From: Chiloscyllium plagiosum
Taxonomy: Eukaryota
NCBI RefSeq assembly: GCF_004010195.1
Contig: NC_057712.1
Coordinates: forward strand, 78,478,529 to 78,542,528
Length of the DNA: 64,000 nucleotides
Reading direction: 5' to 3'
The translations under genes were made by a program, and so were the position numbers. Below the pieces are notes generated by a model. It worked only from the letters and a program-made list of their open reading frames with translations. It was not told where the DNA came from and searched no databases. Positions 5,102 to 50,535 of the stretch are shown piece after piece. The stretch's first letter is position 1, and the number at the start of each line of letters is the position of its first letter.

Positions 5102-5368
5102 AGTAGTTTTAGCAGGCATGAGCCCCACTGGGTCCAGAATGTTCGCCTGGGCACTGCACTTGCTTGGCTGTAAAGTGCTTTGGGATGTCCTAAAATTACA
5201 AAATGAAGTTCTTTCTTGAGGATGCCTCCAGAACTCCATTAATCTACTTAAAACCTTATGCTCAAATGGGCACAAACTTCTGTCAATCAAAAGGGAAAAT
5301 GGGATGAAAATTCAGTTTCACTCCTGCACCAGTGCAGCGTCAATATGTATCTTCTAATAAACCTTACT

Positions 5369-6265
5369 CAGGACACTATTCAAAAGGGCCACAACACACT
5401 GCAGTACACCAGAACTGCAAAAAGAAGAAGAGGAACACCTATACAAGGTATTCGCCAAAAACGGATACCCGCGCAACTTCATCAACAGGTGCCTAAGAGA
5501 AAGACCATGGAACGAGGATATACCACAACCAAAAGGACTAGCCACACTACCATACATCAGGAGCATCTCGGAACTGACAACCAGACTACTGCGACCCATA
5601 GGACTCATAACNNNNNNNNNNNNNNNNNNNNNNNNNNNNNNNNNNNNNNNNNNNNNNNNNNNNNNNNNNNNNNNNNNNNNNNNNNNNNNNNNNNNNNNNN
5701 NNNNNNNNNNNNNNNNNNNNNNNNNNNNNNNNNNNNNNNNNNNNNNNNNNNNNNNNNNNNNNNNNNNNNNNNNNNNNNNNNNNNNNNNNNNNNNNNNNNN
5801 NNNNNNNNNNNNNNNNNNNNNNNNNNNNNNNNNNNNNNNNNNNNNNNNNNNNNNNNNNNNNNNNNNNNNNNNNNNNNNNNNNNNNNNNNNNGGAGTTTGT
5901 GGGTGGATGCCATGCCTCTAGGAATTTCCTGGCTGTTCTCTGTCTGGCTTGCCCTATGATAGTAGTGTTGTCTCAGTCGAATTCATGTTGCTTGTTGTCT
6001 GCGTGTGTGGCTACTAAGGATAGCTGGTCGTGTCGTTTCGTGGCTAGTTGATGTTCATGTATGCGGATTGTTAGCTGCCTTCCTGTCTTCAACCGGAAGC
6101 GGCAGGGACAGACCACTATAAACACCGGAGGAAACATCAAAGATGCGCTTCGCAGGAGGCTCTCAAGCACTGATGATGATGAAACGTTTGCAACAAAAAC
6201 TTCCAGCTCGGCGAACAGAACCACAACAACGAGCACCCGAGCTACAAATCTTCGCACAAACTTTG
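5369..6265 (+). mobile_element. Penelope-like element (RT thumb / GIY-YIG fragments, internal inversion) with 10-bp TSD, spanning an assembly gap
   Basis: Plus strand reads TLFKRATTHCSTPELQKEEEEHLYKVFAKNGYP...ATLPYI. Minus strand reads TGRQLTIRIHEHQLATKRHD (GIY-YIG region). TSD aaaccttact at 5359-5368 and 6266-6275. Confidence 0.88.
5612..5891. other. Assembly gap (N run)
   Basis: Run of N. Confidence 1.
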
Positions 6266-6362: not shown

Positions 6363-7343
6363 AGTGTTTTTATATATAAAATACAAAATTTGAAATAATG
6401 AACAGTTTTGTGGCTATAAATGCAATCCACTTCTCAAGGTTGTTCTGACAGGAGAACTTTGTGTTTATACATTACCTTTATAATTTGCTATTTAAATGTT
6501 GATTTCTATTGCTCCAGTCAATGCAGTAGCATCAATGTTAACAAAAGCACCTTCCTGCCATTTAATTGTAACATAATTAAACAATAGATTTAGAATTTAT
6601 CACTTTTGTAACATAACTATCAAATAGATTGTTTTTGAATAGTTCTGTGCAGCTGGCAGGAATATTTTTTATAATTTTGAATTACTTTGTGCCATTTCAA
6701 TATACAACACAATGCGAGAAAATAAATTTGTCATTTGCATATTCCGGAAAATTGCCATTTAGTCATTTGGCGTTGGCCTTTGTATTTCCTGGCTGCACAT
6801 TATATTTCTTTGCAAACAATTTTAGGTTTCATGTGAAGGGGCTCTGATGTTTCCCACTGCAATGAATTTAAGTTCTTCAATTAGTGATGTGGTAAGCTAA
6901 TATTTGATATAGAATTTTAAAACCTTGAAGCAATAAGTTCTAACCACATCATTTGGAATAGTAAGAATTCTCAGTTCCTTTTCTCTCAGTTGAGGTGGGG
7001 ATTACTGGCATTGAATCCACTTTAAAACTGTAGTACTTAAGTGACAATTACAGTGTACTTCCTATGAACTACTGTTTCACCCAAAACCTATGCCATAAAA
7101 GTAAGAGGCAGTAATGGGGCAATTTGATAACCTTTAAACTGGAGCAAACAGTGAGCAGGACTTGTACTATGTCTGACTTGATGACTCCAGTGAGAAAGCC
7201 ACACTTCTTTCATTGTTAGGCCTTGCTGAAATACTTGGTGTGAGCTGCCAGCACTTAGCAGGAGAGTTGTCAGCTCATCGCTTTGGTGGGTTTGGGGAGG
7301 ATGTGTTGGGGGTTGATTTTGGACGGAATGTGATTGATGTACA

Positions 7344-9178
7344 TCAAAATGTCTGACTAATTAAAAACCCAGAGAATGAAGAATGCATATAATCGGAGGA
7401 ATATAAACCATTGGACTCCTCTGAAGGTAACTGAACAGAGACCTCGTCATGTTCATATAATTGTATTATAGCACTTCCTGAAGCTTGATCAACATAACCT
7501 TCTGTATAATCATCATATGTGTACATCACAGGTTCATTATTTTTGAACAGTCCAATCCAAACATTTCCTCCTTTTACTTGTATATGGTAAGAAAATTGAT
7601 AGATGCCTGGTATTTGACATGTAAATATGCCAGTCGTGGGATCATAATTGTTGTTTTGATTAGCCACTATTTTGTTGAAAGCTATTGGCTGTCTTACAGA
7701 TGGAAATGACTCTAAAAGAATAGCTGTGAAAGCTGGATATGATCTCATGACATCCGGTGTTACGTAACCATTATAGCCTCCGTATTTCCCGGGATTCACA
7801 ACTTCTCCTGGCCGTCCTGGTGGACCAGGGAGTCCAGGTGGGCCTGGAGGGCCGGGTGCTCCTGGTGGGCCTGGTGGCCCATACAGATTCTTTTCATTAA
7901 GACTAGAAGAAAGACCTGGTAGTCCAGGAGGACCTGGAGGTCCTGGGTCTCCTTTCTCTCCAGGGAATCCGGGTGGACCTGGAAATCCGGGTAGACCTTT
8001 TGGACCTGGGGGTCCGGCAGGTCCATTTAATCCAACTTCACCTCGGAATCCTGGTGGCCCTGGACGACCTGGAAGGCCACTGTCCCCAGGCTTCCCAGTT
8101 GGCCCGACAGGTCCGATGGCGCCTTTTTGACCAGGTGGTCCCATTTGCCCGACTGCGCCCGGTATACCAGGTTCTCCTGGAATTCCTGATTTTCCTGGGG
8201 CACCCCCAGGGCCTATTGCACCCTTTGGTCCTGGGTACCCTTGCCCTCCAGGTGGACCTGACATGCCCTTTTGTCCTGGTGCACCTGGTAGACCAGGTGC
8301 ACCTCTCAAACCTTGTGGCCCAGGTGGGCCAGTTGATCCAGAAATTCCTGAGCTTCCTGGGCTGCCAGGATCACCTTTCTCCCCTTTCTCTCCACGATAT
8401 CCAGCTAGACCTGGGGCACCAGGTTCCCCTTTAGGTCCCTGTGGGCCTGGCCTTCCAAAACCAGGAAGTCCAGCAGCTCCAGGCTGACCTGGTGCACCAG
8501 GAGGCCCCTTGGGTCCAGGAGAACCTGGCAACCCTGGTGTGCCATCCGCTCCAGGCTTTCCGATTCCTGATGGCCCAGGTAATCCTGGGGGGCCTCTCTG
8601 ACCTGGGATTCCTGAATCTCCAGGTGGACCTGCTGTGCCTTTTTCGCCCTTTGCTCCTGGTAAACCAGCAGGACCAGGGAGTCCTGGTTTCCCATATCCT
8701 GGTTCGCCACGCATTCCTTGTGGTCCTTGTTGCCCTGGAGGACCTCTTGCCCCTGGCTGTCCTGGAATTCCAACTCCTTTTTCTCCTTTTGCACCAAGGG
8801 GACCAGGATACCCTCGTTCCCCTTTCGCTCCGGGTGCTCCTGCCGGCCCTGTAGACCCAGCAGGCCCTGGTGGGCCTGGTTTACCAGGATATGAAATTCC
8901 AGCTGACCCAGGATACCCTCTAGGTCCTGGCTGTCCTTTTGGTCCTTGCATTCCATGAGGTCCCATGCTACCTTTGGGGCCAGGTGTTCCTCTTTCTCCT
9001 GACTTTCCTGGTGCTCCCGGAGCACCAGGTTTTCCAATTCCTGGCATCCCCTGGGATCCTGGTCGTCCTGGAAGACCAGGTTGTCCTGGCTGTCCAACTC
9101 CTGACTTTCCTGGATATCCTGGTGGGCCTGGAGGGCCACGTGGCCCAGGAGGACCCTGTGGCCCACGGTGCCATCTCA
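7344..9178 (-). CDS. col10a1: Collagen type X alpha-1-like, terminal exon (triple helix ~455 aa + C1q/NC1 ~151 aa)
   Basis: Gly-X-Y domain with the G-X-G and GISYPG interruptions typical of collagen X/VIII. C1q domain [44 protein letters not shown] is closer to COL10A1 than COL8. Acceptor tcttctttctttattgatattaacag ends at 9179, phase 1. The ORF-track start at 9212 is intronic. Confidence 0.93.
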
Positions 9179-10002
9179 CTGTTAATATCAATAAAGAAAG
9201 AAGAGATCTCATTTAAATTATAATATGTGGTTAAGTGTTTGAAAGTTCCCTAATTGGAACTGCAAAACTGACATCACAGATATCCTCCTGTTAGTTTATA
9301 CATTTTGAAAAATAGTTATTTTGAACAATGCTTATTGTTTGCAGAGATCTTAAAAAAAATTGAGAAATTGAGCTATACCAGTAAGTGAGCGGTCAGATGT
9401 TAGAAACACTTTTGTCAAGGAATATTGGGGAAGATGTGGGATTGAATTTGAAAAACTAAATCGCAGTTGCTGGCAAAATGGGATTTCTTCAGAATAGACT
9501 TAAGTTTGTGTCTTAAAGTTCACATGGGATGCTTTTTGCAGCTATGCAATTAAGCAAAATTAATTACATAGTAGCGTTTGTTCAAACTACTGAAGTAAAC
9601 CAAATTTGTGTATTTGTTTTATTTTGCCAATAATGAATGCATCTGTGCTTTTCTTTTGTGGTTGCCAAGATTGCATCAGCCCACAAATTAAATAAATTTA
9701 TACACCAAGAGAAAAGCCAATATTTTCATTCTCTTTTATGTTCTTGAAGACCATGTTTTATTACCATATATATTGATGGTAGTTTTATATTGCAAATATT
9801 TTGTTTAATGTGCTTTGGTAAATAGTTCCTTCAAGTTACATTGAGTGTACAGCCCAGTTGTTTTAAACCAATCTTTAAGCTCATTGCAAGCCTCCTCCCA
9901 ACTCTCTTTATCTACCACCTCAATATTATACACCTAGTTCTTTATTTCTCATGCATTTTCCTCGCTTTTCCTTGAATATGCTCTAGTATCTGCTTCAAAA
10001 GA

Positions 10003-10190
10003 TCAGAGGGTTTGAAGTATGAGGAAAGGCTGAATAGGCTGGGGCTATTTTCTCTGGAGCATCGAAGGCAGAGAGATGACCTTATGGACCAAATAGTGGC
10101 AAATGGGACTAGATTAATTTAGGATATCTGGTTGGCATGGACAAGTTGGACTAAAGGGTCTGTTTCCATGATATACATCTCTCTGACTAT
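10003..10190 (+). mobile_element. CR1 LINE 3' fragment (internally deleted)
   Basis: Encodes GLKYEERLNRLGLFSLEHRR, followed by a CR1 3' tail similar to 40770-40858. Confidence 0.8.
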
Positions 10191-11289
10191 ATAACCACTC
10201 CTTGTGATCACATATTTCACATTCTTACCACTTTTTGGTAAGGGGTACTTTTCTAGAATTCCTTGTTTCATTTATTAGTTACTGTCTTATATTTATAAGC
10301 TCCAACTTTGAACTCTTGCCCATATATGAAAGTTTATATATATAGACTACGTTTCCAAAATATTTCATTATTTTCGAGCTAGTATCCCTGTCTCTGAACC
10401 CAAAGCTCCATATTCAAGTGCAACTACAGAGCTAGTTGGTCTTGAAGATGCATTTTTTGACAAGAGACAGAAGGTTGATAGTAATTCTTCTAATACATTC
10501 CCAATACTTCCCAAAGGAGGAAAAATATGAAGATACAAATGGAAGTCAAAAGTTCCCTTAAAGTGCTCTATCTTGTCATCACTCCGTCTTCTTTTTGCTA
10601 GAGACAAGAACCCAGACCTGTTCAGCTTTTCTTAATAAATATATACCCTTGGTTTTGCTATCAATGTCGCATATATTTTTTCCCACTTTCTCCTGTATCT
10701 CAATATCTACTTTGTAATAAGGAAATCAAATCTGCATCATATCCAAGGTGATCTAACTGTGGTTAGACACAACTTATATGTTTTTCAGTTCTGTTGATAT
10801 GGAAAATAAGCAAAATATTTTTTTTCTCTTCTTTTTAAACCACATCATGACTTTTAGTGATCTGTGTATCTGTAACCCTTGTCTTCGTACCTTGTTTAGA
10901 TTTTATCAATGGGAGGTGTGATCTCCTTATACTTCTGAGGACAATGCCATTGGTTAAAGGGACACGCTTAATTTTAAAACTGTGGTATGGAATATTTTGA
11001 AAATGGTAACATTGAAGGGTGTGATGAAGTATGAAGCACTAATAGGATAATGTAAGATATGTCAAGACTAGGATAGAGGAATCTGAGAGTGTTGTAGCAG
11101 TAGAAGGAGAGGTAGCTGGATCTAAATAATTAAATTGATTTGCCGATATGTTTCATGTATTTTTATCACAGGATTGATGGGTATCATCGCACATTAGTTG
11201 TCGTCATCAATTGTTGTGTAGTTATTTTATTGTATTTTCATTTGCACACTCCTTATCTTTGCAGAATCAAATTACTGCAGTTGCTGGAT

Positions 11290-11465
11290 TCTGTTCTGAA
11301 AACAAAAAATGCAGAAGATCACAGCTGATCAATCAGCATCCATAGTGAGAAAGCAAGCTCATGTTTCGAGTCTACATGGCTCTTCATTCTGATGAAAACT
11401 TGTCTAGACTTGTAACAATAGCTTGCTTTCTCTCTATGGATGCCCCCTTATATCTTTGCTTTGAT
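11290..11465. mobile_element. Decayed palindromic Penelope-derived element
   Basis: gagaaagcaagct...tttcgagtcta...tcttcattctgatgaa...tagactt...agcttgctttctc is self-complementary. Same family as 32001-32190. Confidence 0.6.
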
Positions 11466-13257
11466 TTGCTGCTTTGAATTGTCAATAAAGAGTTTACAAA
11501 AATGTGTTGCTACGTGATATGCAAAATATTATTGGGTACTTAACTATGGTGATTGAATAAATCAAATGGTAGTTTTGTTAATTAATGCAGGCGTTTTAGT
11601 GATACCATTAAGTTTGTACCCTGCAGATGAACAAATTGATATGGAAACTGAATCTATGTTTTTTTTATTAACTGAAATGGTTAATTCTTTCCTTTTCAGA
11701 AGCAATGATACAGAGAGTAATTGTTGAAAAAGATTGCAGATTGTAATGACTGGTTTTGGGGCCACTAGGATTGATGCTATTGAGAGGGTGGTTGTGAACA
11801 TTGGCAGCAGGAGTCATAGCATTTAAGAATATGGTAGTCCAACATGGTTGTTATGGGAATGCTATTTTGAGGTATCAAAATCTGATAGTTGCATGGGGTG
11901 ACTTTCAAAGTATGGTTGTACCAAAGGGTTACAGACAGTTCAGAATGCAGAAGCATTGGAGAGGGATCTTGCAGGCTTTGGAAAGGGTTAAAATATGAGT
12001 TAAGATTTCACTTGTATTCTCTTGATTACAAAAGATTGAGGTTTTCACGATAATTAAATGTGAGGATCGATAGAAATTATGTCCTTTTGTTAGGAGTTCA
12101 TGGGAGGGTCAAGCATGCTCCAGAATGAGAGGCCATATCTTAAAATTATGACTAACTTCTTCAGGGTTGATGTCAGGACCTAATTCTTCTCATGATAGAA
12201 ATTGGATATCTGGAATTCTAGCCCAATAACCCCAGAGAAAAGTCTCTCACTCCTTCAAGAGGAAAGCCATTGAGGTTATGCCAATGGACAGCTCAGAACC
12301 TGAAATTGATAGATTTCTGCTACATCAGGATGATTAAGGATACAGAATCAAGGAATTAACAAATGGTTTGCACATGATTGGCCTACTCCTGTTCCGATGG
12401 GGTAGCAGGAAGGGTAGCAAGTTACTGTTTGCAAAAGTTCTATTTGAGGCTGGTCATGGTGAGGAAGATTTTGTTTACATATTTAACAAATCTAGATATG
12501 TTTACTCAACTTTCTTCCTGCTTCCTTCTTGCATTTTCTTCATTCTCTGACATGACTGGACTTCTTTGCAATCAAGAATTGATATAATTTTAATGTTTGT
12601 CAGACCTGACAACTTTTTAGCAGGAGATGTATAGGTCTTAGAATGGGTCAGGTTGTGGTGGGAAAAGATTTCATAACAATAGTTGTTGAACAGTTGTGAA
12701 TCTAATGCTAGTTGAACTCTGATGGATATCCTCCTGCACAAATATCACATTCCCAACTATCTTTAGGATTCTGTTTCAAATTGTTCAAATGCTTTCAGCA
12801 CTTTTCAAATCAGCACTGGCTAGGCAACTGTTGGAGTTGGGACCTGTCATGTGTCATGGATATGATTTCAAAGTAGTTGGAGTATATTTAGTAAAAGGAG
12901 AGGTGAAAATGGCAGTTACGGGCCTATGGAGTTAAGGATATATTTCCAGCAGGAAAAATTGGCCAAGGTAAAGGAAGAAGAGCTGGCTCTTTGGAAGTCT
13001 TAAAGTGGTTTATGGTACCATAAACATAACCAAGCAACACACATTCTGAAAAACAGGTATGGATGACTCATTGAGAGTTAAGTAAATAGCTCAGTTTAAT
13101 TATGACAGGCATAATAAAAGTAGAAAATCATGATGGAAGGTTCTTGCCTCTTAAACATGTGTAGATATACCAGATTTGTTGGCCTCCTACAGTATATCTC
13201 TGATAATGTAAATTAATGGTTTCTAAAATTCTCTTTGTAAAACGATCCATTTCTCAC

Positions 13258-13329
13258 CTGTTGGAGAAGAGTTAATAGACACTCGATTTTCTTCTGAACT
13301 GTCTGAATCTCCATCACTGTATCGATAAC
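13258..13329 (-). CDS. col10a1: col10a1-like internal coding exon (72 nt, phase 1-1): (G)YRYSDGDSDSSEENRVSINSSPT(V)
   Basis: Acceptor ccttgacttttccaaaacag and donor CAG|gtgaga. Length is a multiple of 3, the frame is open, and the phases match both flanking exons. No transcript evidence available. Confidence 0.72.
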
Positions 13330-15814
13330 CTGTTTTGGAAAAGTCAAGGAACACTGTGGACCTTTTTGAATCTTTCATTTGTTACTTTGGGTTCATGTAC
13401 AAGCAGAAAAATAAAATCTGAGAATGGTGGTTGCCACAGAGTTTTTTTGGAGGGGGATTCTATGCAATAGCTGTCAGATGCGGTTGTTTTCAATCACATT
13501 ATAAACAAATAGTGCAGTAACGTATGAAAGTAAGTGCTAAGTTACCTTGGTTGTACACACAATACATGTAACTTTAAAAGCTCATAATGTATAAAGTGTA
13601 ATTAAAAGTTAGGTGTTTGTTCAAGCTTAAATTTAAGTTTTGTTGAAGGATAAAAAGGGAAACGGATGAAACACAGAATTTGGGAAATAAAATGACAGCT
13701 AACATGCTTTTATACAATGTTCACATCCAGGCTTCTCAATGCTGACTGTAGTGTTTACTTTCTTCCTCAAGGTTCCTCCTAAGAAATTTCTTTGAAAAAC
13801 TTCTCTCATAGAAAATGTTATTATAAGCATATCATTCTTTCAAAAATTAGGTAATGCGTTGAAGGTTTCATTATAATCATTCCTTTGTTATTAAAAATAT
13901 TTTGATCAAGCTGTACATGAATAAAAAGTAAACAGAAAATTCAAAAAAACCCCACCCGTGTTTTTGATGGCTATTCTCAAAACAGGAGACTTGAACCTTT
14001 GAGCACGATTATTAAGAAAGACCCAAAATGGGCTGCCATGTCGCAACTGATTTTTGGTATATATGCACTCAGAATCATTTTAAACAAATTTATACTCATT
14101 TGCAAAAGACAGAAACCCAATTTATTTCATAAAACAAGGCAGTGGTTGAACATTCTGTTTTCAAATGTTTTTGGCACCGGCCCTGTAGAAATATTTGTCA
14201 GTTGTCTGAAATCCTTTGGTGCTAATGAAGTGATGGTCTAAATATATTTGGAGGCTTTTAAATGTTTTCACTATAACTAAATTCATGCTTTATGTTGAAT
14301 TTAGTGTAGAAAGTCAAATATCTTGATTACTGACATTACTACCTTAACTTAATATTGCACTCGACTGTCTGCTGAGACTGTGTTCTAACCCACACCCTTC
14401 TGACTCAGGCAAGATTACTGTTTGTTAAACCTTACCAGCACAGTATTGCAATGCCTTAAATAATAATGATAATGCAAAGAATGATTTCCTATTTCTGTTT
14501 GTACACTCTTTGCGCCATTATGTTTGTCAGCAGGATTAGTGAAATGAATGGAATATTTCGACCAGTGTTAAAGTGGTTATATCTTCCAGACAGAATGTTC
14601 TAACTGTGTTCTACTTCTGAATTTAATTATTTTTGTTTCTGCTGGTACATAAAACCAATAGAATATTCTTAACTACAGTTTTGCAGCCATACACGAGTTG
14701 CACTTGAAAGGAACGTTAAGTGCAGTGTTACATTTTATACTAACAACAAATATTTGCCATAAATCGAAAATAGTTTTAAAGTAGATTTTAAATATTTTGC
14801 ATTATATTTCAGTATGTTTATTTTTCTTTATTTGTGCCCATTAATTTAACTTGCAGACATTTGAATATAAAAGCGACTAGGGGCCTGGGTGAAAGAATAC
14901 ATTTTATTATCCAAGCAGGAACTAAGGTTGATGAAAACTTACGAGGTAGTGATTAGTAATGTCAACCAGTTAGAAGATGAAATTTAAATTAGGAAGGTCC
15001 TTAAAAATATGGGTTGCTTAAGCTATGGAACCATAGTTATGTTTCTTATTTCAAATGCACTATATCTGTTTACTTTGTATAAAATTACAATCAACAGAAT
15101 TTTCCATTTGTCTCCTCCTCCTTCAGTGGAAGTTTGGTACATATTGGTTTGTAAATTCCCGATTTGTTCAGCTCTAACTTATTGCTGCTTATGATTTTTA
15201 AAGCTTTTGAATCCATGAAGTATAAGTGACATGAACTTTTGGGTTGTTAGCAACTTTGTGAAATATAACTAGTTAAACCTTCACAATAACCATATCTACA
15301 CTATTTAGTGTTGGCGCATTAATATGAAATTTTCTACTTCACTTGATATTTTTCTTGCATTGCTTTCTGTTTCTCATTCAGTTTCCTTTGTTGCTTGAAG
15401 TGAAAATCTAGATCAGCTGCTTTTTTTCACTATCTCCTAGTAAGTGCACAAATGTCTCAGGTAATCTTTTCCCCTTTTAGGTATCCTACTACTTTTCTGC
15501 GCCTTCCCTTTAATGGCATGAGAGGCATCACAGACTTGCTAAGAATGCAAGTGAAATTGTTTACTGCTACAGGTTACTGCTGTACTTGAACTGGATGCTG
15601 CTCTTTACTGTAAATATTACATATAACTGATCGTGTTGTAAATAGAGGATACCCAAGCAATAATTATTTCAAAAAAAAAAAATTTTTAGTTAGATTCCTG
15701 CATCTGTGGTAACCAGAACTGCATACAGTAATCCATCTATAGTTTGCCATGCTAACTGAAATATATTCTATTATTACAGAATGTTACAGTGGGGCACTTG
15801 GGAAATCTGAAAGC

Positions 15815-17075
15815 AATAAGTCAGAATCAACAAGTTTTTTTTTATGAAGGGAGGTAGTATTTTGTTAATTTATTTGCATTCTTTAAGGAATTAATAAACT
15901 GTGGAGAAAGTAGAACCTGTTGGTGTTCAACACTTATATTTCTGGAAGGCACTTGACAAGGTGCCAAATCAAAACTTGATATGCAAAATAAGAGCTTGTA
16001 GCATTAGAGGCAACATCTTAGCATGGATAGAGGACTGGCTAGCTAACAGCAAACAGAATTGACATAAAGGTGTAATTTTCGGGTTGACGATATGACGAGC
16101 AGGGTACCAGTTAGCTCAATACATATCAATGATTTTGATTAAGGGACTGAGTGTATGGCTGCTCAATTTGCTAATGACATAAAGATAGCAAGATAAGTTG
16201 TGAAGAGGACATGATGCAGAAAAAGGAAATAAATAGTATTCGTGAGTAAGGGGGAAAACTGGCAAATAAAGTCTGCATTCAAATGTTAACTTATCCCAAT
16301 TTGACAGCAAGAAAAGTAGAAACATTATTTAAATGGAGAAAACTTGAAGAATTTAGAAATACAGATGGATCTGGATGACTTGTATCTGAACCACTATATT
16401 GGTTCAGCAAGTGATTAGTGAGGCAAATAGAATATTGTCATTTCTTGCAAGGAGATAGAAAGGAAAAGTAGTGATGTGTTTTTTTTTCTGCTGTATATTT
16501 TGTTGGAATGGCCACATCAGAAGTACTGTGGAAAGTTTTGATCTCCTTAAATTTTTTATAAAAGAAAAGGGCTGTAAATCCTTTAGAAGTAGTTCAAAGA
16601 AAGTTCACTCATCTGGTGCCTGGGATAAGGGAGTTATCGTGAAAGGCTGGATTGACTGAGTCTGTATTCGTGGAGTTTGGAAGAATAAGAGGTGATCTTA
16701 TCAAAACACACAAAGTCCTGAGGGGACTTGACGGAGTGGGTGTGAAGGGATATTTTCCTTATGGGAGAGACTAGACCTAAAGAACGCAATTTGAAAATAA
16801 GAGGTCACTCATTTAGGACAGAGATTAGAAAATTAATTTCTTTGAAGATTGAAAATCTTTGAAATTCTCTGGGAAAGAGAATGATGGAGGCAGAGTCATT
16901 GAATATTTTTAAGGAAGAGCTGATTGATTCTTGACTAACAATGGAGTGAACAGGTATTGGGGCAGGCAGGAGAGTGGAAGTGAGGTCACAATCAGATGAG
17001 CCATGATTTTATTGAATGGAGCTCGTGTGATGGAGCCAATAACCCCTTTTTTGCTCCTGATTGAAATATTTGTAT
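15815..17075 (+). mobile_element. Old degraded CR1-type LINE (RT + 3' end) in collagen intron
   Basis: Remnants of KAxDKVP, KFADD-like and LYSWSLEExxGDLIKT motifs plus a CR1 3' tail, with many stops. Confidence 0.75.
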
Positions 17076-19527
17076 GTTCATAAAAGTAATAATATGTCAT
17101 TGTCAACAACACAGTTCACAACCTCTCACTGTGTATCTTGCTTATATTGTGTGTGCAAAAATTAATTTTGAAACAATTTTAGGTGCAGAATTTAATTCTA
17201 AGTAGAAATTAACTGCTGAAAGGTTTCAGTTTCAGTGTCAGTGAAATATCCTCATCCTTTAGCATCAGTTCTCTGCAAACAGCTGTTGCTTATTACTATA
17301 ATTTTGCCCCTAGTGATCTAGTGTATCTAATAAGAGTTTCGTGAAAGGAATGTACATTATCTTTAGTGTATTATCTTTAGTGTTCTCTACAATTAAAAAA
17401 GATTTCTCCTCACTGAAACCTACAGTGGTCTGTATCTTCAGCTAAATCTTGATGGCATTAAAATAATTTGTAGTTTAAAGTTGAACAATATGTCTGATCC
17501 TATTTCCTTAAAATATTAGGCTTAATTTGTGCAAAAGGTGGATTGAGCTTTCAATATTTTATTGTCACACATAAAGGTAGACAAGTTCCACATTATTTTC
17601 TCTTCCCATTTTTTTTGATGTTTTAGTAATTCTTCGTAAATTTTGGGTAACTCACTGCAGGCAAATCTGAAAACTCCTGACCACTGTGCAGCAGAACCAT
17701 GATCTCATTAGAGAATTTAAATGATTTAGTGGTCATTAATAGAATATCAGATCATTAGACATTTTTTTTCTAAATGGATAAATAATTGTATTCCAAATGT
17801 CACAGTATAATAGGAATTCTGTGCTGCAGTTGTACAGAGTCATTTGAGGATTAAAATAATTATTTTAGTTTTGAATTGTCAAGGATGTGCAGCTTAGATT
17901 ACAGCATAATATTGTTACATCTAGATTTCAATTCTTAAACTTATTTACAATCATAGTTCACATGGGACAACAATTTTGATCCAACAGTTGCTCAGTGCTT
18001 TGCTTACATTGTTTAAAGAGTTATTAAGCTCTTGCTATATTCAATTGTATCCCTTGAACAAATGTAGCTATTAATTGGTGTTGTAAATACATTTTGAGAT
18101 GTTTTCACAATCTATTTTGATTAAAATTCAATTTTTAAACTGCCTACTTTGCTGTGCATATTATGTTAAAACTTGGTCATTTAGGCAGTAGAACGAGTTT
18201 TCCATGGACCATATATCACAACAGCTACTTGCAATTATACGAAATGTTTAACACGATTGAAACAAAGTACTTTACAGAAGAGTTAACAAATAAATTTTGA
18301 CACCAGCCTCAACGGGGAGATCAGGAAAAAAGAATGAACGTGTCAATCAAAAATGTTGATTTTAAAGGCAGTCAGAAAAGAGGTAGAGACGAAGAAAGTC
18401 CAGAAAGTAAGACAAATCCAGAGCACAAGACCAGGGTAGTTGAAGACATGTGCACTGATGAAATGATGAAACTGGTAATGCTCAAGAGACAAGGCTTAAA
18501 TGAATGGAAATCTGTTTGAGGTTTATAGAACTGGCTGCAGAGATGGAGTGGGGTGAAGCCAAGGAGTGATTTGTGAAAAAACGGTGAGATTTTAAAATTG
18601 AAGTATTGTGCACTGGGATGCCAATTAGCTCAGTTGGCTAAATGGCTAGCATATGAATCAGATGATAAGGTTTTGATCCCATTCTGACTGAGGTAGTTTG
18701 AGGCTGCATCTTTGCATCTCTCCAAAATAAAATCTCAGCATAAACCATAATTTGGCAACCATCAAATATTGAAGACCTTACACAGTTTAACCTTCTCAAA
18801 TCTGAGCTCTTTTCATAACTATTTTGAATTTTTTTAAAAATCCAAAAACTCTAGAGTATTTATTTTACCTCCCATTTCCACTATAACAGTAGTCAGATGA
18901 TCCCCACGATAGCCACATACCCTTTTTCCTCCTTTCCATTTCTGGCACTAGCAGTATGGAAGTCACTGTTGCAGGCTTTTACAAATGATTATCACTGTAC
19001 TTAAAGTTGACAGTGATATTAAATTTTTTTTTAATGGTTATAATTCATTTGAATCTTGTCCTTTTCAGCTTGTGATCCAGCAGACATATCTTGAGCAAAA
19101 ATGAACAGCATTAAACATATGCTTTTTTCATCACCCATAACTACCATTACATTCATTGGTGGGGACTGTTTTGGAGAAATAACTGGAGATAATCTATGGT
19201 TTCTAACATTTAAGTAAGCCGTGATGGTGATAATGCATGTGGAATAAATAATATTCTGTGACTTGGATGAGGAGTGCACATTGATTTATAATGCTTAAGT
19301 TGTATAGTTCTTAAAATTGTTTTTCTCATAAGAATCCTAATTCCTAATCATAATACTGCATAGTATGAAGTTGTGATAGCCAAATATTTAATTTTGTCGA
19401 CACTCAGCGATGATTTCAGTTAGCTAACACTAATTATTGATGGAGTCAATGCACTAACATGTTGTGCCAGGTAATGGTTGGCGACAAGTTTGTACAGGAG
19501 TGTCTTAGTCTCACCTTGGTTGTCGAA

Positions 19528-19597
19528 GGAGTTTGTGAAGGATTCCCCTTTGGGAGGGACAGGGAGTTTGTGAAGGATTCCCCTTTGGGAGGGACAG
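19528..19597. repeat. Perfect 35-bp tandem duplication
   Basis: ggagtttgtgaaggattcccctttgggagggacag at 19528 and 19563. Confidence 0.95.
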
Positions 19598-19911
19598 AAA
19601 ATTGAAGTGTACATCAACCTGTGCACAATTTTGCATTCCAAAGTGTCTAGAAAAATTAAATGATAGCGACGTGGATTGCCTGCTTTAAGAGAGTGTTGTA
19701 TCATGTGGGTATTTTATGTGGAGAATATTGGATAAACAAGGTGCTGTGGGAGGAATGTGAATATTAAAATTGCTTGTCTGAGATTTAGCTCAGACTAAAA
19801 TGAAACCAGCAACAAATATTTGAAGTCCGTAGCGAGCTGCCCCCATCTTTTCTGTCAACTTGGATCACCACATTTGTTGTAACTCACGGGGATCACCCCA
19901 TGGACACTTAC

Positions 19912-20011
19912 CAGCTGGATGCTGTGCATGATGATGTCTATAATATCCAAGTCCGTTGGCCAAGGTAACAGACAATAGCAACAGAAGCGCCGCAGTTTCT
20001 CTTACAGCCAT
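19912..20011 (-). CDS. col10a1: col10a1-like first coding exon: signal peptide + NC2 start, MAVRETAALLLLLSVTLANGLGYYRHHHAQHPA(G); full exon 19912-20026
   Basis: Acceptor ttctgtcacaattttacag, 15-nt UTR, Kozak-like aaacATGG, hydrophobic core with A-N-G cleavage motif, donor CTG|gtaagt in phase 1. 100+72+1835 nt = 669 codons including the stop. Confidence 0.9.
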
Positions 20012-20096
20012 GTTTTAACTTCAACTCTGTAAAATTGTGACAGAATTTGTTCTGAACAAAGATAGAAATGTCATCTATTATAATTATATAACATTT

Positions 20097-20432
20097 GGTG
20101 GCACGGTAGCTCAGAGGTTAGCACTGCTGCCTCAAAGCACCAGGGATCTGCGTTTGGTTCCAGCCATGTCTGTGTGGAATTTGCACATTCTCCCTCTGTC
20201 TGCGTGAGTTTCCTCTGGGTGTTCCGGTTTCCTCCCACAGTCCAAAGATGTGCAGGTTAGGTGAATTGACCAAGCTGAATTGCCCGTAGTGTTCGGGGAT
20301 GTGTAGGTTCGGTGCAGTAATCATGGGAAATCTAGGGTAGAGGATTGGGTCTGGGTGGGATACTTTTCGGAGGGTTGCTGTGGACTTGTTGGGCCAAATG
20401 GCCTGTTTCCACACAGTTGGGATTCTATGATC
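20097..20432 (+). mobile_element. HE1-type SINE in collagen intron 1
   Basis: ggtggcacggtagctcagaggttagcactgctgcctc (A-box head), central gtccaaagatgtgcagg, and a CR1-like tail. Confidence 0.9.
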
Positions 20433-36844: not shown

Positions 36845-39800
36845 AATCCAAGATGGAGGGTGGGAAAATTTCTGGCTGTAACAGCTGCTCCTTTTTTGAG
36901 GTATTTTAGGTGCTGGAGGTGATTTCCTCGAATTCCAGGAGCAGCAATTACTGTTTTATATGCTGTTGCATTGCTTTGGAACTTTGGACAAAAAAAGTCA
37001 AAACAACAGCAGTTTTAAAAGGGAGAAGAACAGACAAAGGAAGCACATTGTGAGGTCAGTGCAGGAGAGAGAGAGAGAGAACCTGCTCAGTTACTGCCTT
37101 TGCTGTTTTGAATTCATGTATCGCTAGACATCGGACTGCGTCTGAGAAAATTAACGAACAGTGAAATTCACAACTAATCATGGAACCTGTTTGGATGAAG
37201 TTCACAGCACAGTATCAGATAAGTTAATCATTGTTTTAAGTGTGTCCAATAGAAAGGCTGCAGTAGTGAGTAGAGTGGGTTCTTTCTTGATTATATGTTT
37301 TTGGAGCTATGTCTCTTGATTAAACTTAAAATACAAGCCATAACTGTTAATTTAACCTAGGGCAGTGTTTTGTAGAGGAATAAGACGGTGTTATTTTCTG
37401 GGTCTGCAGATTGTGAAGGTGCAAAAATAGCCTTCAGTACAGTGATATGTACTTCTTGTCAGATGTGGGAGTTTAAAGAGAGTTTAAGGGTTACTGCGGA
37501 TTATATCTGCCATAAATGCCGTTGACTGCAAATCTTATCAGACCAAATGGATCAGTTTGAGAGACAGTTAGAAGCAATAAGGAATTTGCGACAGCAACAG
37601 TATGTGCGGGATGGCATTTGTAGGAAGGGGGGAAAGTCTCAGATATGGTCACATAGATGGGTTAGCTCCAGGAAAGGTAAGAGAGGTAGGCAGATAGTGC
37701 AGGAGTCTTTTGTGGATATACTCATTTCAAACAAGTATACTGTTTTGGAAAATGTAAGGGATGATGGATTCTCAGGGGAACAAAGCACAAACAGCCAAGT
37801 TTCTGGCATTGAGACTGGCTCTAATGCAACGAGGGGTACGCCGGGGTCCAAGAGATCAATTGTGTTAGGGGATTCTCTAGTCTGAGGTACAGACAGACAT
37901 TTCTGTGACCAGCAGCGAAAAAGCAGAATGGTGTGTTTCCCTCGTGCCAGGATCAAGGATGTCTCAGAGAGGGTGCAGAATGTTCTCAAGGGGGAGAGGG
38001 GCCAGCAGGAGGTCATTGTCCACATTGGAACCAACGACATAGGACGGGACAAGATTGAGATTCTGAAGGGAGATTACAAAGTGTTAGGCAGGAATTTAAA
38101 AAGGAGGTCCTCGAGCGTACTCATATTTGGATTACTCATGGTGCTTCAAGCGAGTGAGGGCAGGAATAGGAGGATAGAGCAGATGAATGCATGGCTGAGG
38201 AGCTGGTGTATGGGAGAAGGATTCACATTTTTGGATCATTGGAATTTCTTTTGGGGTAAAAGCGACCTGTACAAGAAGGATGGATTGCACCTAAATTGGA
38301 AGGGGACTAAAATACTGGCAGGGAGATTTGCAAGAGCTGCTTGGGAGGATTTAAACCAGTAAGGTGGGGGTTGGGGGTGGGGGTGGACCCAGGGAGATAG
38401 TGAGGAAAGAGATCAATCTAAGACTGGTACAGTTGAGAACAGAAGCGAGTCAAACAGTCAGGGCAGGCATGGACAAGGTAGGACTAATAAATTAAACTGC
38501 ATTTTTATTTCAATGCAAGGGGCCTGAAGGGAAAGGCAGATGAACTCAGGGCATGGTTAGGAACATGGGACTGGGATATCATAGCAATTACAGAAACATG
38601 GCTCAGCGATGAGCAGGACTGGCAGCTTAATGTTCCAGGATACAAATGCTATAGGAAGGATAGAAAGGAGGCAAGAGGGGAGGGGGAGTGGCATTTTTGA
38701 CAAAGGATTACATTGGAGCTGCGATGAGGGAGGATATTCCCAGAAATACATCCAGGGAAGTTATTTGGGTGGAACTGAGAAATAAGAAAGGGATTGTATT
38801 ATAGACCCCTTAATAGTCAGAGGGAAATTGAGAAACAAACTTGTAAGGAGAGCTCAGCTATCTGTAGGAATAATAGGGTGGTTATGGTAGGGGATTTTAA
38901 CTTTACAAACATAGACTGGGACTGCCATAGTGTTAAAGGTTTAGATGGAGAAGAATTTAAGTGCGTGGAAGACAATTTTCTGATTCAATATGTGGATGTA
39001 CCTACTAGAGAAGGTGCAAAACTTGACCTACTCTTGGGAAATAAGGCAAGGCAGGTGACTGAGGTGTCAGTGGGGGAGTACTTTGGGGCCAGCAACCATA
39101 ATTCTATTAGATTTAAAATAGTGATGGAAAAGGATAGAGAAGATCTAAAAGTTGAAGTTCTAAATTGGAGAAAGGCCAATTTTGACGGTATTAGGCAAGA
39201 ACTTTCAAAAACTGATTGGGGGCAGATGTTCGCGGGTAAGGGGATGGTTGGAAAATGGGAAGCCTTCAGAAATGAGATAACAAGAATCCAGAGATAGTAT
39301 ATTCCTGTTAGGGTGAAAGGAAAAGCTGGTAGGTATAGGGAATGCTGGATAACTAAAGAAATTGAGGGTTTGGTTAAGAAAAAGAAGGAAGCATATGTAA
39401 GGTATAGACCGGATCAAGTGAATCCTTAGAAGAGTATAAAGGAAGTAGGAGTATACTTGTGGGAAATTAGGAGGGTAAAAAGGGGACATGAGATAGCTTT
39501 GGCAAATAAAATTATGGAGAATCAAAAGAGTTTTTACAAAAGCATTAAGGACAAAAGGGTAACTATGGAGAGAATAGGGCCCCTCAAAGATCAGCAAGGC
39601 GGCCTTTGTGAGCCGCAGGAAATGAGGGAGATACTATTTTGTATCAGTACTTTGGAAAAGTATGTGGAAGATATAGACTGTAGGGAAATAGATGGTGACA
39701 TCTTGCAAAATGTCCATATTACAGAGGAGGAAGTGCTGGATGTTTTGAAACTGGTAAAGGTGGATAAATCCCCAGGACCTGATCAGGTGTACCCGAGAAC

Positions 39801-40858
39801 TCTGTTGGAAGCTAGAGAAGTGATTGCTGGGCCTCTTGCTGAGATATTTGTATCATCGATAGTCACAGGTGAAGTGCCGGAAGACTGGAGGTTGGCAAAC
39901 GTGGTGTCACTGTTTACAAAGAGGATTGATGAGGGCAGAGTGGTAGATGTGATCTCTATGGACTTCAGTAAGGTGTTCGACTCGGTTCCCCATGGGAGAC
40001 TGATTAGCAAGGTTAGATCTCACGGAATACAGGGATATCTAGCCATTTGGATGCAGAACTGGTTCCAAAGTAGAAGACAGGGTGGAGTTGGAGGGCAGTT
40101 TTTCAGACTGGAGGCATGTGACCAGTGGAGTGCCACAAGGATTGATGCTGGGTCCTCTACTTTTTGTCATTTACATAAATGATTTGGATGCGAGCATAAG
40201 AGGTACAGTTAGTAAGTTTGCAGATGACACCAAAAATAGTGGTGTAGTGGACAGCGAAGAGGGTTACCTCAGATTACAGGAGGATCTTGACCAGATGGGC
40301 CAATGGACTGAGAAGTGGCAGATGGAGTTTAATTCAGATAAATGCGAGGTGCTGCATTTTGGGAAAGCAAATCTTAGCAGGACGTATACACTTAATGGTA
40401 AGGTCCTAGGGAGTGTTGCTGAATAAAGAGACCTTGGAGTGCAGGTTCATAGCTCCTTGAAAGTGGAGTCGCAGATGGATAGGATAGTGAAGAAGGCATT
40501 TGGTATACTCTCCTTCATTGGTCAGGATAGGGTAAATAGGCAAAGTCTTTTCCTTGTGGTTGGGGAGTCCAGAACTAGGTTTAGGGTGAGAGGGGAAAGA
40601 TATAAAGGAGACCTAAGGGGCAACTTTTACACACACAGGATGGTATGGGTATGGAATGAACTGCCAGAGGAAGTGATGGAGGCTGGTACAATTGCAACAT
40701 TTAAGAGGCATTTGGATGGGTATATGAATAGGAAGGTTTGGAGGGAGATGGGCCGGGTGCTGGAATGTGGGACGAGATTGGGTTGGGATATCTGGTCGGC
40801 GTGGGCAAGTTGGACCGAAGGGTCTGTTTTCATGCTGTACATCTCTATGACTCTATGA
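36845..40858 (+). mobile_element. Near full-length CR1 LINE (5'UTR, ORF1 Zn-finger + SGNH esterase, ORF2 APE + RT), inactivated
   Basis: ORF1 has CTSC..CHKC, IVLGDSLV, VHIGTND and DGLHLN. ORF2 has IAITETW, MVGDFN, LDLLL, SGVPQG and SKFADDT. Tail ctctatgactctatga. Stops, frameshifts and internal deletions present. Confidence 0.95.
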
Positions 40859-42324
40859 CAGATTGAGCAGCATTAGCCATCAAAAGCACATTGGTGTCTT
40901 TGTTCATGAGGCTCTAGAAGTTAGCTTTAGGTTCAGCAGACAATTAAGAAGGCAAATAATATGTTGATCTTCATTACAAAAGGATGGGAGTACAGAAGTT
41001 AAGATGTTGCTGTTGTACAAAGTGTTGGTGTATTGTGTGCGTATTAATCTCTTTATATATGAATGATATGTTTGCCATAGCAAGAGTGCATTGGAGATGC
41101 TCCAGATAAATCCTGGATTGGTAGGATTAATTTATAAACAGAGAATAAGGAGCCTGGATTTATTTTGCCTAGAGCTTTGAAGAAGGGTAACATAACTGGA
41201 ACTTATAAAGTTTATGACTAAAGGGCCAGTTTTTCTATCATTGCTTTTTGATATTTTGGGATTAAAATTATGCATTTCCCTGGATGAACTACTAGAAAAC
41301 TGTGGAAAAAAAGGTTGAGTTTGTAAAATTTGTAGTTATTACGGTCTTCTTTTCCCACAAGCAAGATGGATTTCACTTTTGTTAAGTATTCTCTTCCTAG
41401 ATATTAACCACAAGATGTTAAGAATGCAGATTTACTAAACTCTTACCGATTGAATATTGTGGCTGTAAATATTTCCATCCATTGACCTGTCCAAATTTCC
41501 CTCCATGCAAGATGTACATAATAAAACCAATTGGTGAACATGTAATAATTGGAAAAAAAAACTACACAAGTGTTTCCAAATATCAAATGTAATAACATAA
41601 ATCTGTTAGTGTATAAAATATCTTGGTATTTTGGTCATTTCCTGAAGCTGCTTGCAGGGTTTGGGTGCCAAAGACAATTTGCAAAATAATGTAAAGACCT
41701 GATGACATGGCCTTGCAGAATATTAGTCACTAGTGCCAGACGTAGTGTGAAATCTGTTGTTATGTGAGCAATCATTTTCTTCCACAGATGTTTAAGATAC
41801 TGGCCAATTAATTTAGTACTTTTAACATAGTAAGAGTATTTTAAATAAAGAAATGACATTAAACTGTAGCTCGAGGAAAAAGTGTTGTCCAAAGCAGTCG
41901 ATCTTCTCTTTGACGAACACACTACATCCACCTGAATTTGGATTATTCAAAGCTTCATAACTCACATCGCCTTCAAGTTGAGCTTGAATCTACGATCTAG
42001 TGATTCAGGCAAGAGCGTTTCAACTAACCTGCACTGACATGTAGGTGCTTTCATCTGTCTCTAATTTTTATAAAGTCTTCCTAAGTCATAAGTAACATTT
42101 TACTCTCCTCTTTGTTTTATTGTTCTAACGGGGTTATGGACCCATTTAACATGGAAAGAACTGGTCAACTTTCTCATGAAGCGAAAATTTAAAAAATACA
42201 AACTATCATCCTTGTTGACATTGTGTCACAAACAAGTAAGGAGAATACGATACAAATACAGAATTGGAACAATCATGTGAAAGAATATAGGAACAATGTT
42301 TCAAATTGATATGCAGTGTTTGCC

Positions 42325-45376: not shown

Positions 45377-45573
45377 TTGGGAGCCTCCTGTGAAGCGCTT
45401 CTGTGGTGTTCCCTCCGGCATTTATAGTGGCCTGTCCCTGCCGCTTCCGGTTGTCAGTTTCAGCTGTCCGCTGTAGTGCCCGGTATATTGGGTCCAGGTC
45501 TATGTGTTTGTTGATGGAGCTTGTGGACTAGCCACACTACCATACATCAAGAACATCTCTGAAATGACAGCCA

Positions 45574-45677
45574 NNNNNNNNNNNNNNNNNNNNNNNNNNN
45601 NNNNNNNNNNNNNNNNNNNNNNNNNNNNNNNNNNNNNNNNNNNNNNNNNNNNNNNNNNNNNNNNNNNNNNNNNNNNN
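45574..45677. other. Assembly gap (N run)
   Basis: Run of N. Confidence 1.
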
Positions 45678-46877
45678 TCGTTCTGTTGTCTTTCTCTTAG
45701 GCATCTGTTGATGAAATTGCGAGGATATCCGTTTTTTGCGAATACCTTGTATAGGTGTTCCTCTTCCTCTTTTTGCAGTTCTGGTGTACTGCAGTGTGTT
45801 GTGGCCCTTTTGAATAGTGTCTTGATTTACATAGTTTATCTGAATGCTTCTGTATTTATTCAAACCATGAAGCTGAAACTTAAATTTAAATGTTTTACAT
45901 CCATGTCTTTTTAAACAAAACTCCACAAATAATTGCTGTTGAAATATAGGTTTCTTCTTGATTTATCCTGTTATTAGAATGATTAAATAAATGTACTCAG
46001 CCTTTTACATAGAACTAAGAAAAGGCACTAATTTCCACATGAATAAATCAGCTTCATGATTATTGTGAGAAGATGCTAATTCTGTTCTCATAAATTGAAT
46101 GATTATTGCTAACTGCAGGCTATTTTTTCCAACTGCACAAGATTTGCTCTTTAGCATTGTTCGAAGCTGTTACACTAACAACACTACCTTCAGTGAACTG
46201 ATCATTGATTTTAAAACTTTTATTTAAACAAAGCATAGAAAGTACTGTTGAAAAGAACTGGCTGAGACTGATTACAACACTATGAATAGCTGGTAGATTT
46301 TGACCTTGATGTTATGGTTTTGCTTTAAAATCCACCTCTCTCATAGTATTTTTACATTGAACATTCTAATGTATCATCTATTAACAAAATGTTAATTATT
46401 TGCTGAGGAAAAGAAATTTCTTCTTGGTTTACTGTAGTACAATACTAGATACTTTATATAAAAAGCCTTGATGTCCAAAGGCCCAGTGTGAATGTGTTGA
46501 ATCAATGCTCTGTTAGTTTACAACTTTTTTTTTCTTGCTTTCCATTCCAATTTTAGCTTTTTTTTTGAATGCTGAATATATGTTCAATATGTACAAGCGG
46601 TCAGAAGTGAAAAGTAAGCATTCATAAACCACACAAGGTCTTTGGCCCTTAGTGCTTTCCTGTGGTTTAACTCAAAGGCCTTTTGTTGCTCTGAAAGTGT
46701 TGACCCAAGCAGTGAATAATTTTAGCTTATTGTTAAGAATCTCCAGAATAAATACTGTTCAAATTTATGCCATACTCAGCACAGATTTTTGAATGATATG
46801 CTATGTTATTTTTATTAGTCTGGATTATGTTGAAACCTTTTGTGAACCATTATCGTTACACAAATAATATAATTAGA

Positions 46878-48893: not shown

Positions 48894-49520
48894 AGGAGAA
48901 AGTGAGGACTGCAGATGCTGGAGAGTCAGAGTCAAAATGTGTGGTGCTGGAAAAGCACTGCAGGTCAGGCAGCATCTGAGGAGCAGGAGAGTCAATGTTT
49001 CGGGCATGAACCCTTAATCAAGAATGTAGTTGGGGGAGAGGGCTGAGGGATAAATCTGTGGGTGGGGCTGGGAAGGCGATAGGCAGATACAGGTGGAGAG
49101 TGAATGTGATAGGTCAGTTGGGAGGGTGGAGCAAATAGGTAGAGGAAGATGAACAGGTAGAGCAGTTCAAGAGAATGGTGCCGAGTTGGAGGATTGGATC
49201 TGAAATAAGGGTGAGGGAAGGGACATTTAGAAACTAATTAAGTCGATGTTGATACTATGTGAGTGAAGGATCCCAAGTCAGAAGTTGAGGCGTTCTTCCT
49301 GCAGTTGTCAGATGGCTTGGATTTGGCGATGGAGGAAGCCCAGGACTTGCGTGTCCTTGGGGGAATGGGAGGGGGAGTTGAAGTGATCAGCCACAGGGCA
49401 GTGGGGTTGTTTCGTGTATGTGATCCAGAGATGATCTCTAAAATGCTCCGCGAGTTGGTGTCCTGTCCCCCTGATGTTGGTGTCCTGTCCCCCACATCGA
49501 GAGCAACATCTACTTTGTGA
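48894..49520 (-). mobile_element. Penelope-like (Neptune-type) 3' end: GIY-YIG C-terminus + terminal repeat with decayed hammerhead
   Basis: Minus ORF reads CSRCG...GTGHQLAEHFRDHL...PVADHFNSPSHS..QVLG, followed by the same terminal sequence found in the palindromic elements (4883, 32308, 59048). Confidence 0.85.
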
Positions 49521-49734
49521 CACTTCACAAAGAGTCAAGCCAGTGCCATGGAGCTCCATAAAGAAGAGGAGCATCAGCCAGACATTCCAGGGAACTTGAA
49601 GAGTGCCCTGCCTCTCCTCCACTTCAGTACCAGTGACCTTAGGCTCCAGCTGCCCCAGTGTTGGAAACTGATCCCAGGCCGGAGCACTCAGGCCTCAGAC
49701 TATCAGAGGATGGCCAGCAAAGGACATCTCAAGC

Positions 49735-50535
49735 AATGGGCTGTCGTGGGCAGCGGGCCGTCACGGGTAGCAGGCAGTGGGCTGTCGCGAGCAGCAGGCA
49801 GTGGGCAGTCGCGAGCAGCAGGCAGTGGGCCGTCACAGACAGCAGGTAGTGGGCAGTCACGACCAGCAGGCAGTGGGCCGTCACGACCAGTGGGCTGTCA
49901 CGAGCAGTGGGCCGTCGTGAGCAGTAGGCAGACACGAGCAGCAGGCAGTCGCAAGCACAGGCAGTGGGCCGTCACGAGCAGCAGGCAGTGGGCAGTCACG
50001 AGCAACAGGCAGTGGGCCGTCACGAGCAGCAGGCAGTGGGCCGTCACGAGCAGCAGGCAGTGGGCCGTCACGAGCAGCAGGCAGTGGGCAGTCACGAGCA
50101 GCAGGCAGTGGGCTGTCACGAGCAGCAGGCAGTGGGCCGTCACGGGCAGCGGGCAGTGGGCCGTCGCGGGCAGTGGGCCGTCGCGGGCAGCGGGCAGTGG
50201 GCAGTCACGAGCAGCAGGCAGTGGGCTGTCACGAGCAGCAGGCAGTGGGCTGTCACAGGCAGCAGGCAGTGGACTGTCACGGGTAGCAGGCAGTGGGCCG
50301 TCACGGGTAGCGGGCAGTGGGCCGTCGCGGGCAGTGGGCCGTCGCGGGCAGTGGGCCGTCGCGGGCAGTGGGCCGTCACAGAGAGCAGGCAGTGGGCTGT
50401 CACAGAGAGCAGGCAGTGGGCTGTCACAGGCAGCAGGCAATGGGCAGTCGCGAACAGCGGGCAGTGGGCCGTCACAGGCAGCAGGCAGGGTGCAGTCACG
50501 GGCAGCGGGCAGTGGGCCGTCATGGGCAGCAGGAA
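49735..50535. repeat. GC/CpG-rich minisatellite, 24-bp unit (cagtgggccgtcacgagcagcagg) with 17-bp variant units
   Basis: About 800 bp of tandem units, seen as 8-aa periodicity in all overlapping ORFs. Confidence 0.95.

Follow-up and report, generated by a model that had tools for sequence, protein, structure and literature searches.

A transcribed mini-exon encodes the acidic DSSEE domain of shark Col10a1.2 and likely shares its origin with mini-exons of four further collagen X paralogs

Collagen X is a homotrimer, and mammalian COL10A1 comprises two coding exons. Sharks possess very few SCPP genes with which to mineralise their enameloid and dentine. The chondrichthyan Col10a1 paralogs predate the split of holocephalans and elasmobranchs, and in one of them a 'short domain S/D S/D DSSEE in Col10a1.2' was described in 2019 (Debiais-Thibaud et al., PMC6759074). 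In the catshark, Col10a1.2 transcripts are present in the ameloblasts of teeth and scales, both secretory and maturation ones, and none were detected in the vertebrae or in Meckel's cartilage; Col10a1.4 and Col10a1.5 are odontoblastic, and Col10a1.4 is also vertebral (PMC6759074). Expression of fam20c was reported in catshark ameloblasts (Leurs et al. 2022, PMC9122587), and the consensus of Fam20C is given in abstracts as S-x-E/pS.

The locus described here lies in a stretch of 64,000 nucleotides from Chiloscyllium plagiosum, referred to as the window. The clean 72-nt phase-1/1 exon that the initial annotation had placed between a signal-peptide exon and a collagen exon is confirmed, as it is preceded by AG and followed by GTGAGA in the window sequence, keeps an open frame and is joined to both neighbours in three of three contig runs. 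Joined in phase 1, the three exons (Table 1) encode an open protein of 668 amino acids with a signal peptide, a short N-terminal region, a collagen helix, a C1q domain and the peptide given in the initial annotation, and the frame is likewise preserved if the signal-peptide exon is joined directly to the collagen exon. The mini-exon contributes 23 whole codons, including 7 Ser, 5 Asp/Glu and 2 Arg (D/E/S in 12 of 23 residues), with S-x-E twice and S-x-pS once behind the signal peptide. The peptide itself gave no Pfam match. A strict scan of both introns revealed one other symmetric phase-1 exon candidate (19646-19515), which is non-acidic and had zero depth in all four runs examined.

Outside this gene, the window contains a long low-complexity tandem array (49500-50700), both strands of which carry repetitive open frames that overlap one another. 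Penelope-like and CR1/LINE-like open frames at 5250-6050, 37600-40900 and 45480-45960 are presumably retroelement remnants, and two of these three are broken by assembly gaps.

Table 1. Features of the Col10a1.2 locus (window positions) and mini-exons of three neighbouring paralogs (positions on contig C3).
Feature	Position	Strand	Basis or remark
Mini-exon of Col10a1.2, coding, 72 nt, phase 1/1	13258..13329	-	splice ends, frame, transcript joints
DSDSSEE motif; two S-x-E serines and one S-x-pS serine, predicted Fam20C sites	13289..13309	-	matches published short domain
3' splice site of mini-exon, A-rich, ends AAAACAG	13330..13345	-	
5' donor GTGAGA of mini-exon	13252..13257	-	
Signal-peptide exon; ATG at 20011, 100 coding nt, phase-1 donor after 19912	19912..20026	-	
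Last coding exon: collagen triple helix and C1q (NC1)	7344..9178	-	Pfam PF01391, PF00386
RWHR, directly ahead of triple helix; possible minimal R-x-x-R convertase site	9165..9176	-	
Intron upstream of mini-exon, 6582 nt	13330..19911	-	transcript contig skip
Intron downstream of mini-exon, 4079 nt	9179..13257	-	transcript contig skip
Col10a1.3 mini-exon, 60 nt, phase 1/1, SLEE	C3:78445985-78445926	-	beyond left edge of window; DNA profile
Col10a1.5 SE domain: seven tandem mini-exons, 63-90 nt	C3:78381042-78364967	-	scans and horn shark model
Col10a1.6 mini-exon, 39 nt, very acidic, phase 1/1	C3:78334568-78334530	-	composition scan

The gene of the window is the ortholog of shark Col10a1.2. It possesses the signal peptide, triple helix and C1q domain of that paralog, and the published short domain is present between signal peptide and helix as DSDSSEE. 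Of the 23 residues of its signal peptide, 21 are identical to whale shark Col10a1.2 (counted by eye in the supplement of PMC6759074); the helix is closely similar as well, and by eye both parts also match catshark Col10a1.2 in the same supplement. Six collagen X C1q matches lie within 270 kb on C3, the gene of the window being the first in transcription order, and two further single loci in the genome group with collagen VIII. In a tree of 14 rows, the six tandem copies branch as (.1,(.2,(.3-.6))), with the gene of the window branching second, which is the order published before (PMC6759074); the support values of 87/87 for the.2-.6 clade and 82/87, not starred, are moderate, and Col10a1.1 forms a long branch. 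The five other copies were named by eye against the supplement of PMC6759074. The expected place of Col10a1.2 is intron 6 of Nt5dc1 near Frk; a search of the genome with PF05761 (Nt5dc1) yielded 25 matches, none of them on C3.

Col10a1.2 orthologs of other species were compared by means of the sequencing runs and PMC6759074. A homolog search gave 5 matches among 74 candidates, none of them chondrichthyan and none informative on the N-terminus, and a search of representative proteins gave one useful protein among 150 listed, a fused model of Col10a1.5 and Col10a1.6. This public horn shark model (XP_067876004.1, 2324 aa) bears the name 'collagen alpha-2(IV) chain-like' and wrongly fuses LINE-like sequence with Col10a1.5 and Col10a1.6. 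The signal-peptide exon of Col10a1.1 was located at C3:78230256-78230184 on the minus strand (73 nt) and ends in a cysteine just ahead of the helix; the catshark and ray Col10a1.1 rows in the trimmed supplement alignment of PMC6759074 show no signal peptide.

For transcript evidence, four of 24 listed runs were compared with window positions 6500-20150, using the contigs of X1, X3 and X5 and the raw reads of X20. X1, X3 and X5 represent three studies; that they are RNA is only guessed, yet in their contigs the two introns are removed exactly. The inclusion joints on either side of the mini-exon (9178^13258 and 13329^19912, with canonical ends) were both found in the contigs of all three, as foreseen in the junction check put forward with the initial annotation. 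A single X1 contig of 3055 nt covers all three exons and is identical to the window along 2679 nt of the last exon. X20 consists of raw single-cell reads, and the roughly 2% of them that were examined contained neither joint and no reads on the mini-exon or the collagen exon, a sample uninformative on the level of expression. As originally proposed, transcripts of a chondrichthyan collagen X gene that is duplicated and tied to mineralisation thus include an extra exon bearing S-x-E and S-x-pS. Although X5 carries the same organism label as X1, each of its contig pieces over 6500-9178 differs from the window by 9-13 letters, whereas X1 is identical; this reflects either a different population or a label issue.

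At the 5' side, alignment of the contigs of X1, X3 and X5 ends at an acceptor, 20027, beyond which they continue for 76, 105 and 26 further letters, respectively. Because the contigs run on beyond this acceptor, a further, unlocated non-coding exon probably lies upstream of 20027.

A symmetric exon could be alternatively spliced, and a joint from 9178 to 19912 that skips the mini-exon was detected in X3, with a depth of 12.1 in comparison to 18.5 for the inclusion contig and with exact splice ends. The shorter side of this joint measures 29 letters, and the joint was flagged 'between: not known'. X3 stems from a relative and departs from the window by 60 letters and 39 gaps over 2.7 kb. Absence of the skip joint from the contigs of X1 and X5 was not counted as evidence, because contigs drop rare variants. 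A paralog as the source of the skip joint was rejected, since at the two flanks just 7-12 and 4-16 of 30 letters, respectively, agree with the five paralogs, and the 354-kb region lacks the joined 40-mer. Skipping would yield an in-frame form of Col10a1.2 that lacks the acidic tag. The possibility of alternative splicing raised at the outset therefore gains an in-frame skip junction in one of three contig runs, that of a relative, which suggests rather than establishes that both forms are made.

The initial annotation also regarded the acidic module as a feature of this paralog of its own; this part did not hold, as related mini-exons are present in Col10a1.3,.4,.5 and.6. The neighbouring DNA (290 kb) and the window, 354 kb together, were scanned for acidic phase-1/1 exons. 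In each of Col10a1.2 to Col10a1.6, the corresponding intron holds a phase-1/1 mini-exon, and the register of the acidic motif is largely kept: one copy each in.2,.3,.4 and.6, and seven in.5. Here the composition scan detected six exons in.5 and a single exon each in.4 (72 nt) and.6 (39 nt). The seventh.5 mini-exon was detected by an acceptor-pattern scan, and a DNA profile of ten mini-exons led to the 60-nt exon of.3, which the composition filter had missed. In Col10a1.1, the corresponding intron (9481 nt, free of gaps) yielded seven generic candidates that lack an acidic S-x-E core and do not match the profile, and no mini-exon. The transcript check covered the mini-exon of Col10a1.2.

The seven.5 exons match the horn shark model XP_067876004.1 in order, with 13-23 identical residues each, and therefore correspond to the published SE domain; the fifth apparently requires a GC donor. 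The.4 mini-exon reproduces the published pattern of Col10a1.4 (PMC6759074). For Col10a1.3, the text of 2019 mentions no short domain (PMC6759074). A peptide resembling the.6 mini-exon occurs in XP_067876004.1 and in the tail of the whale shark composite of supplementary figure 3, unnamed in the text (PMC6759074). S-x-E stands at residues 11-13 in.2,.3,.6 and two of the.5 copies. A strict S-x-E is lacking in the.4 exon and in one.5 copy, and the exon of.3 is hardly acidic.

Whether these exons share one origin was addressed with leave-one-gene-out profiles (nhmmer, 354 kb). An exon of the left-out gene was the top match outside the training set in five of five tests, with E values of 2e-5 (.2), 1e-4 (.3), 0.035 (.4), 9e-5 (.5, best copy) and 0.074 (.6), and two of the seven.5 copies ranked among background matches. 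Ungapped identity in register from the acceptor, summed over ten pairs of the exon bodies of the five genes, amounted to 166-183 matches in comparison to 112 +/- 9 for codon-shuffled bodies. None of 20,000 codon shuffles reached the observed identity for any of the seven choices of the.5 copy, and the p values for amino acids were 0.0001-0.005. In addition, an A-rich acceptor ending in AAA[CT]AG was found in 10 of 11 mini-exons (four of five genes; nine found without selecting on it) and in none of six collagen-exon acceptors.

That splice sites or composition alone cause the profile matches was rejected for.3,.4 and.6, whose matches mostly disappear once the bodies are shuffled, and only in part for.2. 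The body of the.2 exon alone is weakly recognised (body-only profile E 4.7; pairwise body z at most 2.0), and shuffled.2 bodies with real flanks still score (E 0.03-0.13), so that part of the.2 signal comes from the acceptor. The end of the signal-peptide exon, which has a similar Y-x-[IV]-K look, was likewise rejected as a source of the mini-exon because the DNA profile does not match the signal-peptide exons. At the two col8 loci (94 kb) the profile gave nothing at E under 1, a weak test in which the first coding exons of col8 were not located.

Because the identity in register exceeds that of all 20,000 codon shuffles, it is likely, judging from the sequences, that the mini-exons of Col10a1.2 to.6 descend from one ancestral acidic phase-1/1 exon. 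This exon would have been gained once after the split of Col10a1.1; alternatively, it might have been lost in Col10a1.1. A more far-reaching scenario can be put forward tentatively, as a possibility somewhat short of even. One Fam20C-target mini-exon may have been gained in the stem of cartilaginous fishes right after the Col10a1.1 split, inherited by.2-.6, shrunk in.6, de-acidified in.3, multiplied sevenfold in.5 and made skippable via an A-rich weak acceptor. In that case, differences in exon copy number between genes and alternative splicing within a gene might allow sharks to adjust how much mineral-binding charge collagen X carries, as a collagen-borne stand-in for the SCPP family.

With respect to function, it is fairly probable that the spliced-in exon of Col10a1.2, which encodes the published DSSEE domain and likely derives from the ancestral.2-.6 mini-exon, provides a predicted Fam20C-phosphorylated, calcium- or apatite-binding N-terminal tag in enameloid. 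Fam20-family loci are present on four contigs of the genome. Fam20C would phosphorylate up to three serines of the mini-exon in the Golgi, which would shift the net charge of the exon from -3 to about -9 per chain and threefold in the trimer. The three phospho-tags would cluster at the N-terminal end of the collagen X trimer, and tagged Col10a1.2 may bind calcium or apatite in the enameloid matrix. The original proposal of a phospho-module for mineralised cartilage or teeth agrees with the ameloblast expression in teeth and scales on the side of the teeth, but not on that of cartilage, as Col10a1.2 was undetected in vertebrae and Meckel's cartilage (PMC6759074).

The exon could also encode a low-complexity spacer or carry another modification, such as an N-glycan at the N-S-S sequon or tyrosine sulfation, with S-x-E being incidental and skipping of little consequence. 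The exon bodies indeed differ greatly among the paralogs, the.4 exon and one.5 copy do without a strict S-x-E, each protein contains 1-4 further S-x-E elsewhere, and a skip form exists. This reading is nevertheless rather doubtful, since the serine and acidic core is kept in register across paralogs that have been dated to before the holocephalan-elasmobranch split, the motif is conserved across species enough to be named in print (PMC6759074), and Col10a1.5 has expanded to seven exons that together hold 13 S-x-E.

A further possibility is that the acidic N-terminal piece is cut off at RWHR and tunes or inhibits crystal growth as a free phosphopeptide instead of remaining bound to the collagen. 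The R-x-x-R immediately ahead of the triple helix in.2 would permit this, and basic residues ahead of the helix also occur in.3,.6 and the.6 part of the horn shark model. R-x-x-R is the minimal convertase pattern, however, so that RWHR is only a predicted site, and.4 and.5, the most acidic copies, possess no basic site at that place. S-x-E-rich copies of Spp2 occur in sharks, and PMC13188829 raises inhibition as a possible role of their multiplied SxE sites. On balance, release of a free peptide is unlikely, and the collagen-bound phospho-tag is the reading that we prefer.

As an SCPP-like motif, the peptide qualifies by composition and chemistry (D/E/S-rich, S-x-E) and not by intron phase and locus. 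According to Leurs et al. (PMC9122587), SCPP genes derive from 5' exons of sparc-L and their introns are mostly phase 0; in elasmobranch scpp the first three coding introns are phase 0 and the fourth is phase 1. Both introns that flank the mini-exon of Col10a1.2 are phase 1, contrary to this pattern, and the resemblance is therefore one of composition only. With regard to a sparc-L origin or synteny, the exon lies inside a collagen X gene and has its relatives in Col10a1 paralogs. Capture of the exon from an SCPP or sparc-L gene by exon shuffling, which would make it a true SCPP-derived module, is consequently most improbable, even if SSEE and the D/E/S-rich make-up resemble segments of SCPP and DMP1 and a DMP1-family annotation was mentioned for the.5 domain (PMC6759074). 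The authors of that paper called the resemblance to SCPP convergent, the peptide matched no Pfam family, and a DNA search of the genome, of limited reach, returned the mini-exon itself and no second match.

Since the motif has been published, the finding as first posed adds little: the motif, the paralog and the link to mineralisation have been known since 2019 (PMC6759074). The text of that paper does not describe the.2 domain as an exon of its own, contains no match to 'splic' and draws no link of descent to the other paralogs, and its supplement, in which the alignment is trimmed and two of nine pages are pictures, gave no text match to 'DSSEE' or 'exon'. Earlier reports on a shared origin of.2-.6, on the exons of.3 and.6 or on the skip form were not found in a search of mainly open-access literature, in which only PMC6759074 proved relevant. 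In comparison to the papers searched, three points are likely new, as a modest contribution to exon-level anatomy: the likely common origin of.2-.6, the existence of the exon in.3 as well as.6, and the skip joint in a single run. In the exon view, three separately described domains (.2,.4 and.5) and two that the text of 2019 does not mention (.3 and.6) probably go back to one origin. With its inclusion and skip forms, Col10a1.2 provides a natural pair, with and without the putative acidic phospho-tag, that bears on the role of this tag in apatite growth.

Compared with the known systems, SCPP/SIBLING proteins (DMP1, osteopontin) and elasmobranch Scpp are likewise secreted, D/E-rich and provided with S-x-E, and share ameloblast expression alongside fam20c; they are derived from sparc-L with mostly phase-0 introns, whereas the mini-exon of Col10a1.2 is phase 1/1 and lies within a collagen X gene. 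The short domain of Col10a1.2 described in PMC6759074 corresponds to the present exon in paralog, motif and place between signal peptide and triple helix. The short domain of Col10a1.4 and the SE domain of Col10a1.5 from the same paper occupy the same intron position as in.2, and both are encoded here by phase-1/1 mini-exons. Col10a1.2 possesses one such exon with two S-x-E and is ameloblastic, whereas Col10a1.5 possesses seven with 13 S-x-E and is odontoblastic.
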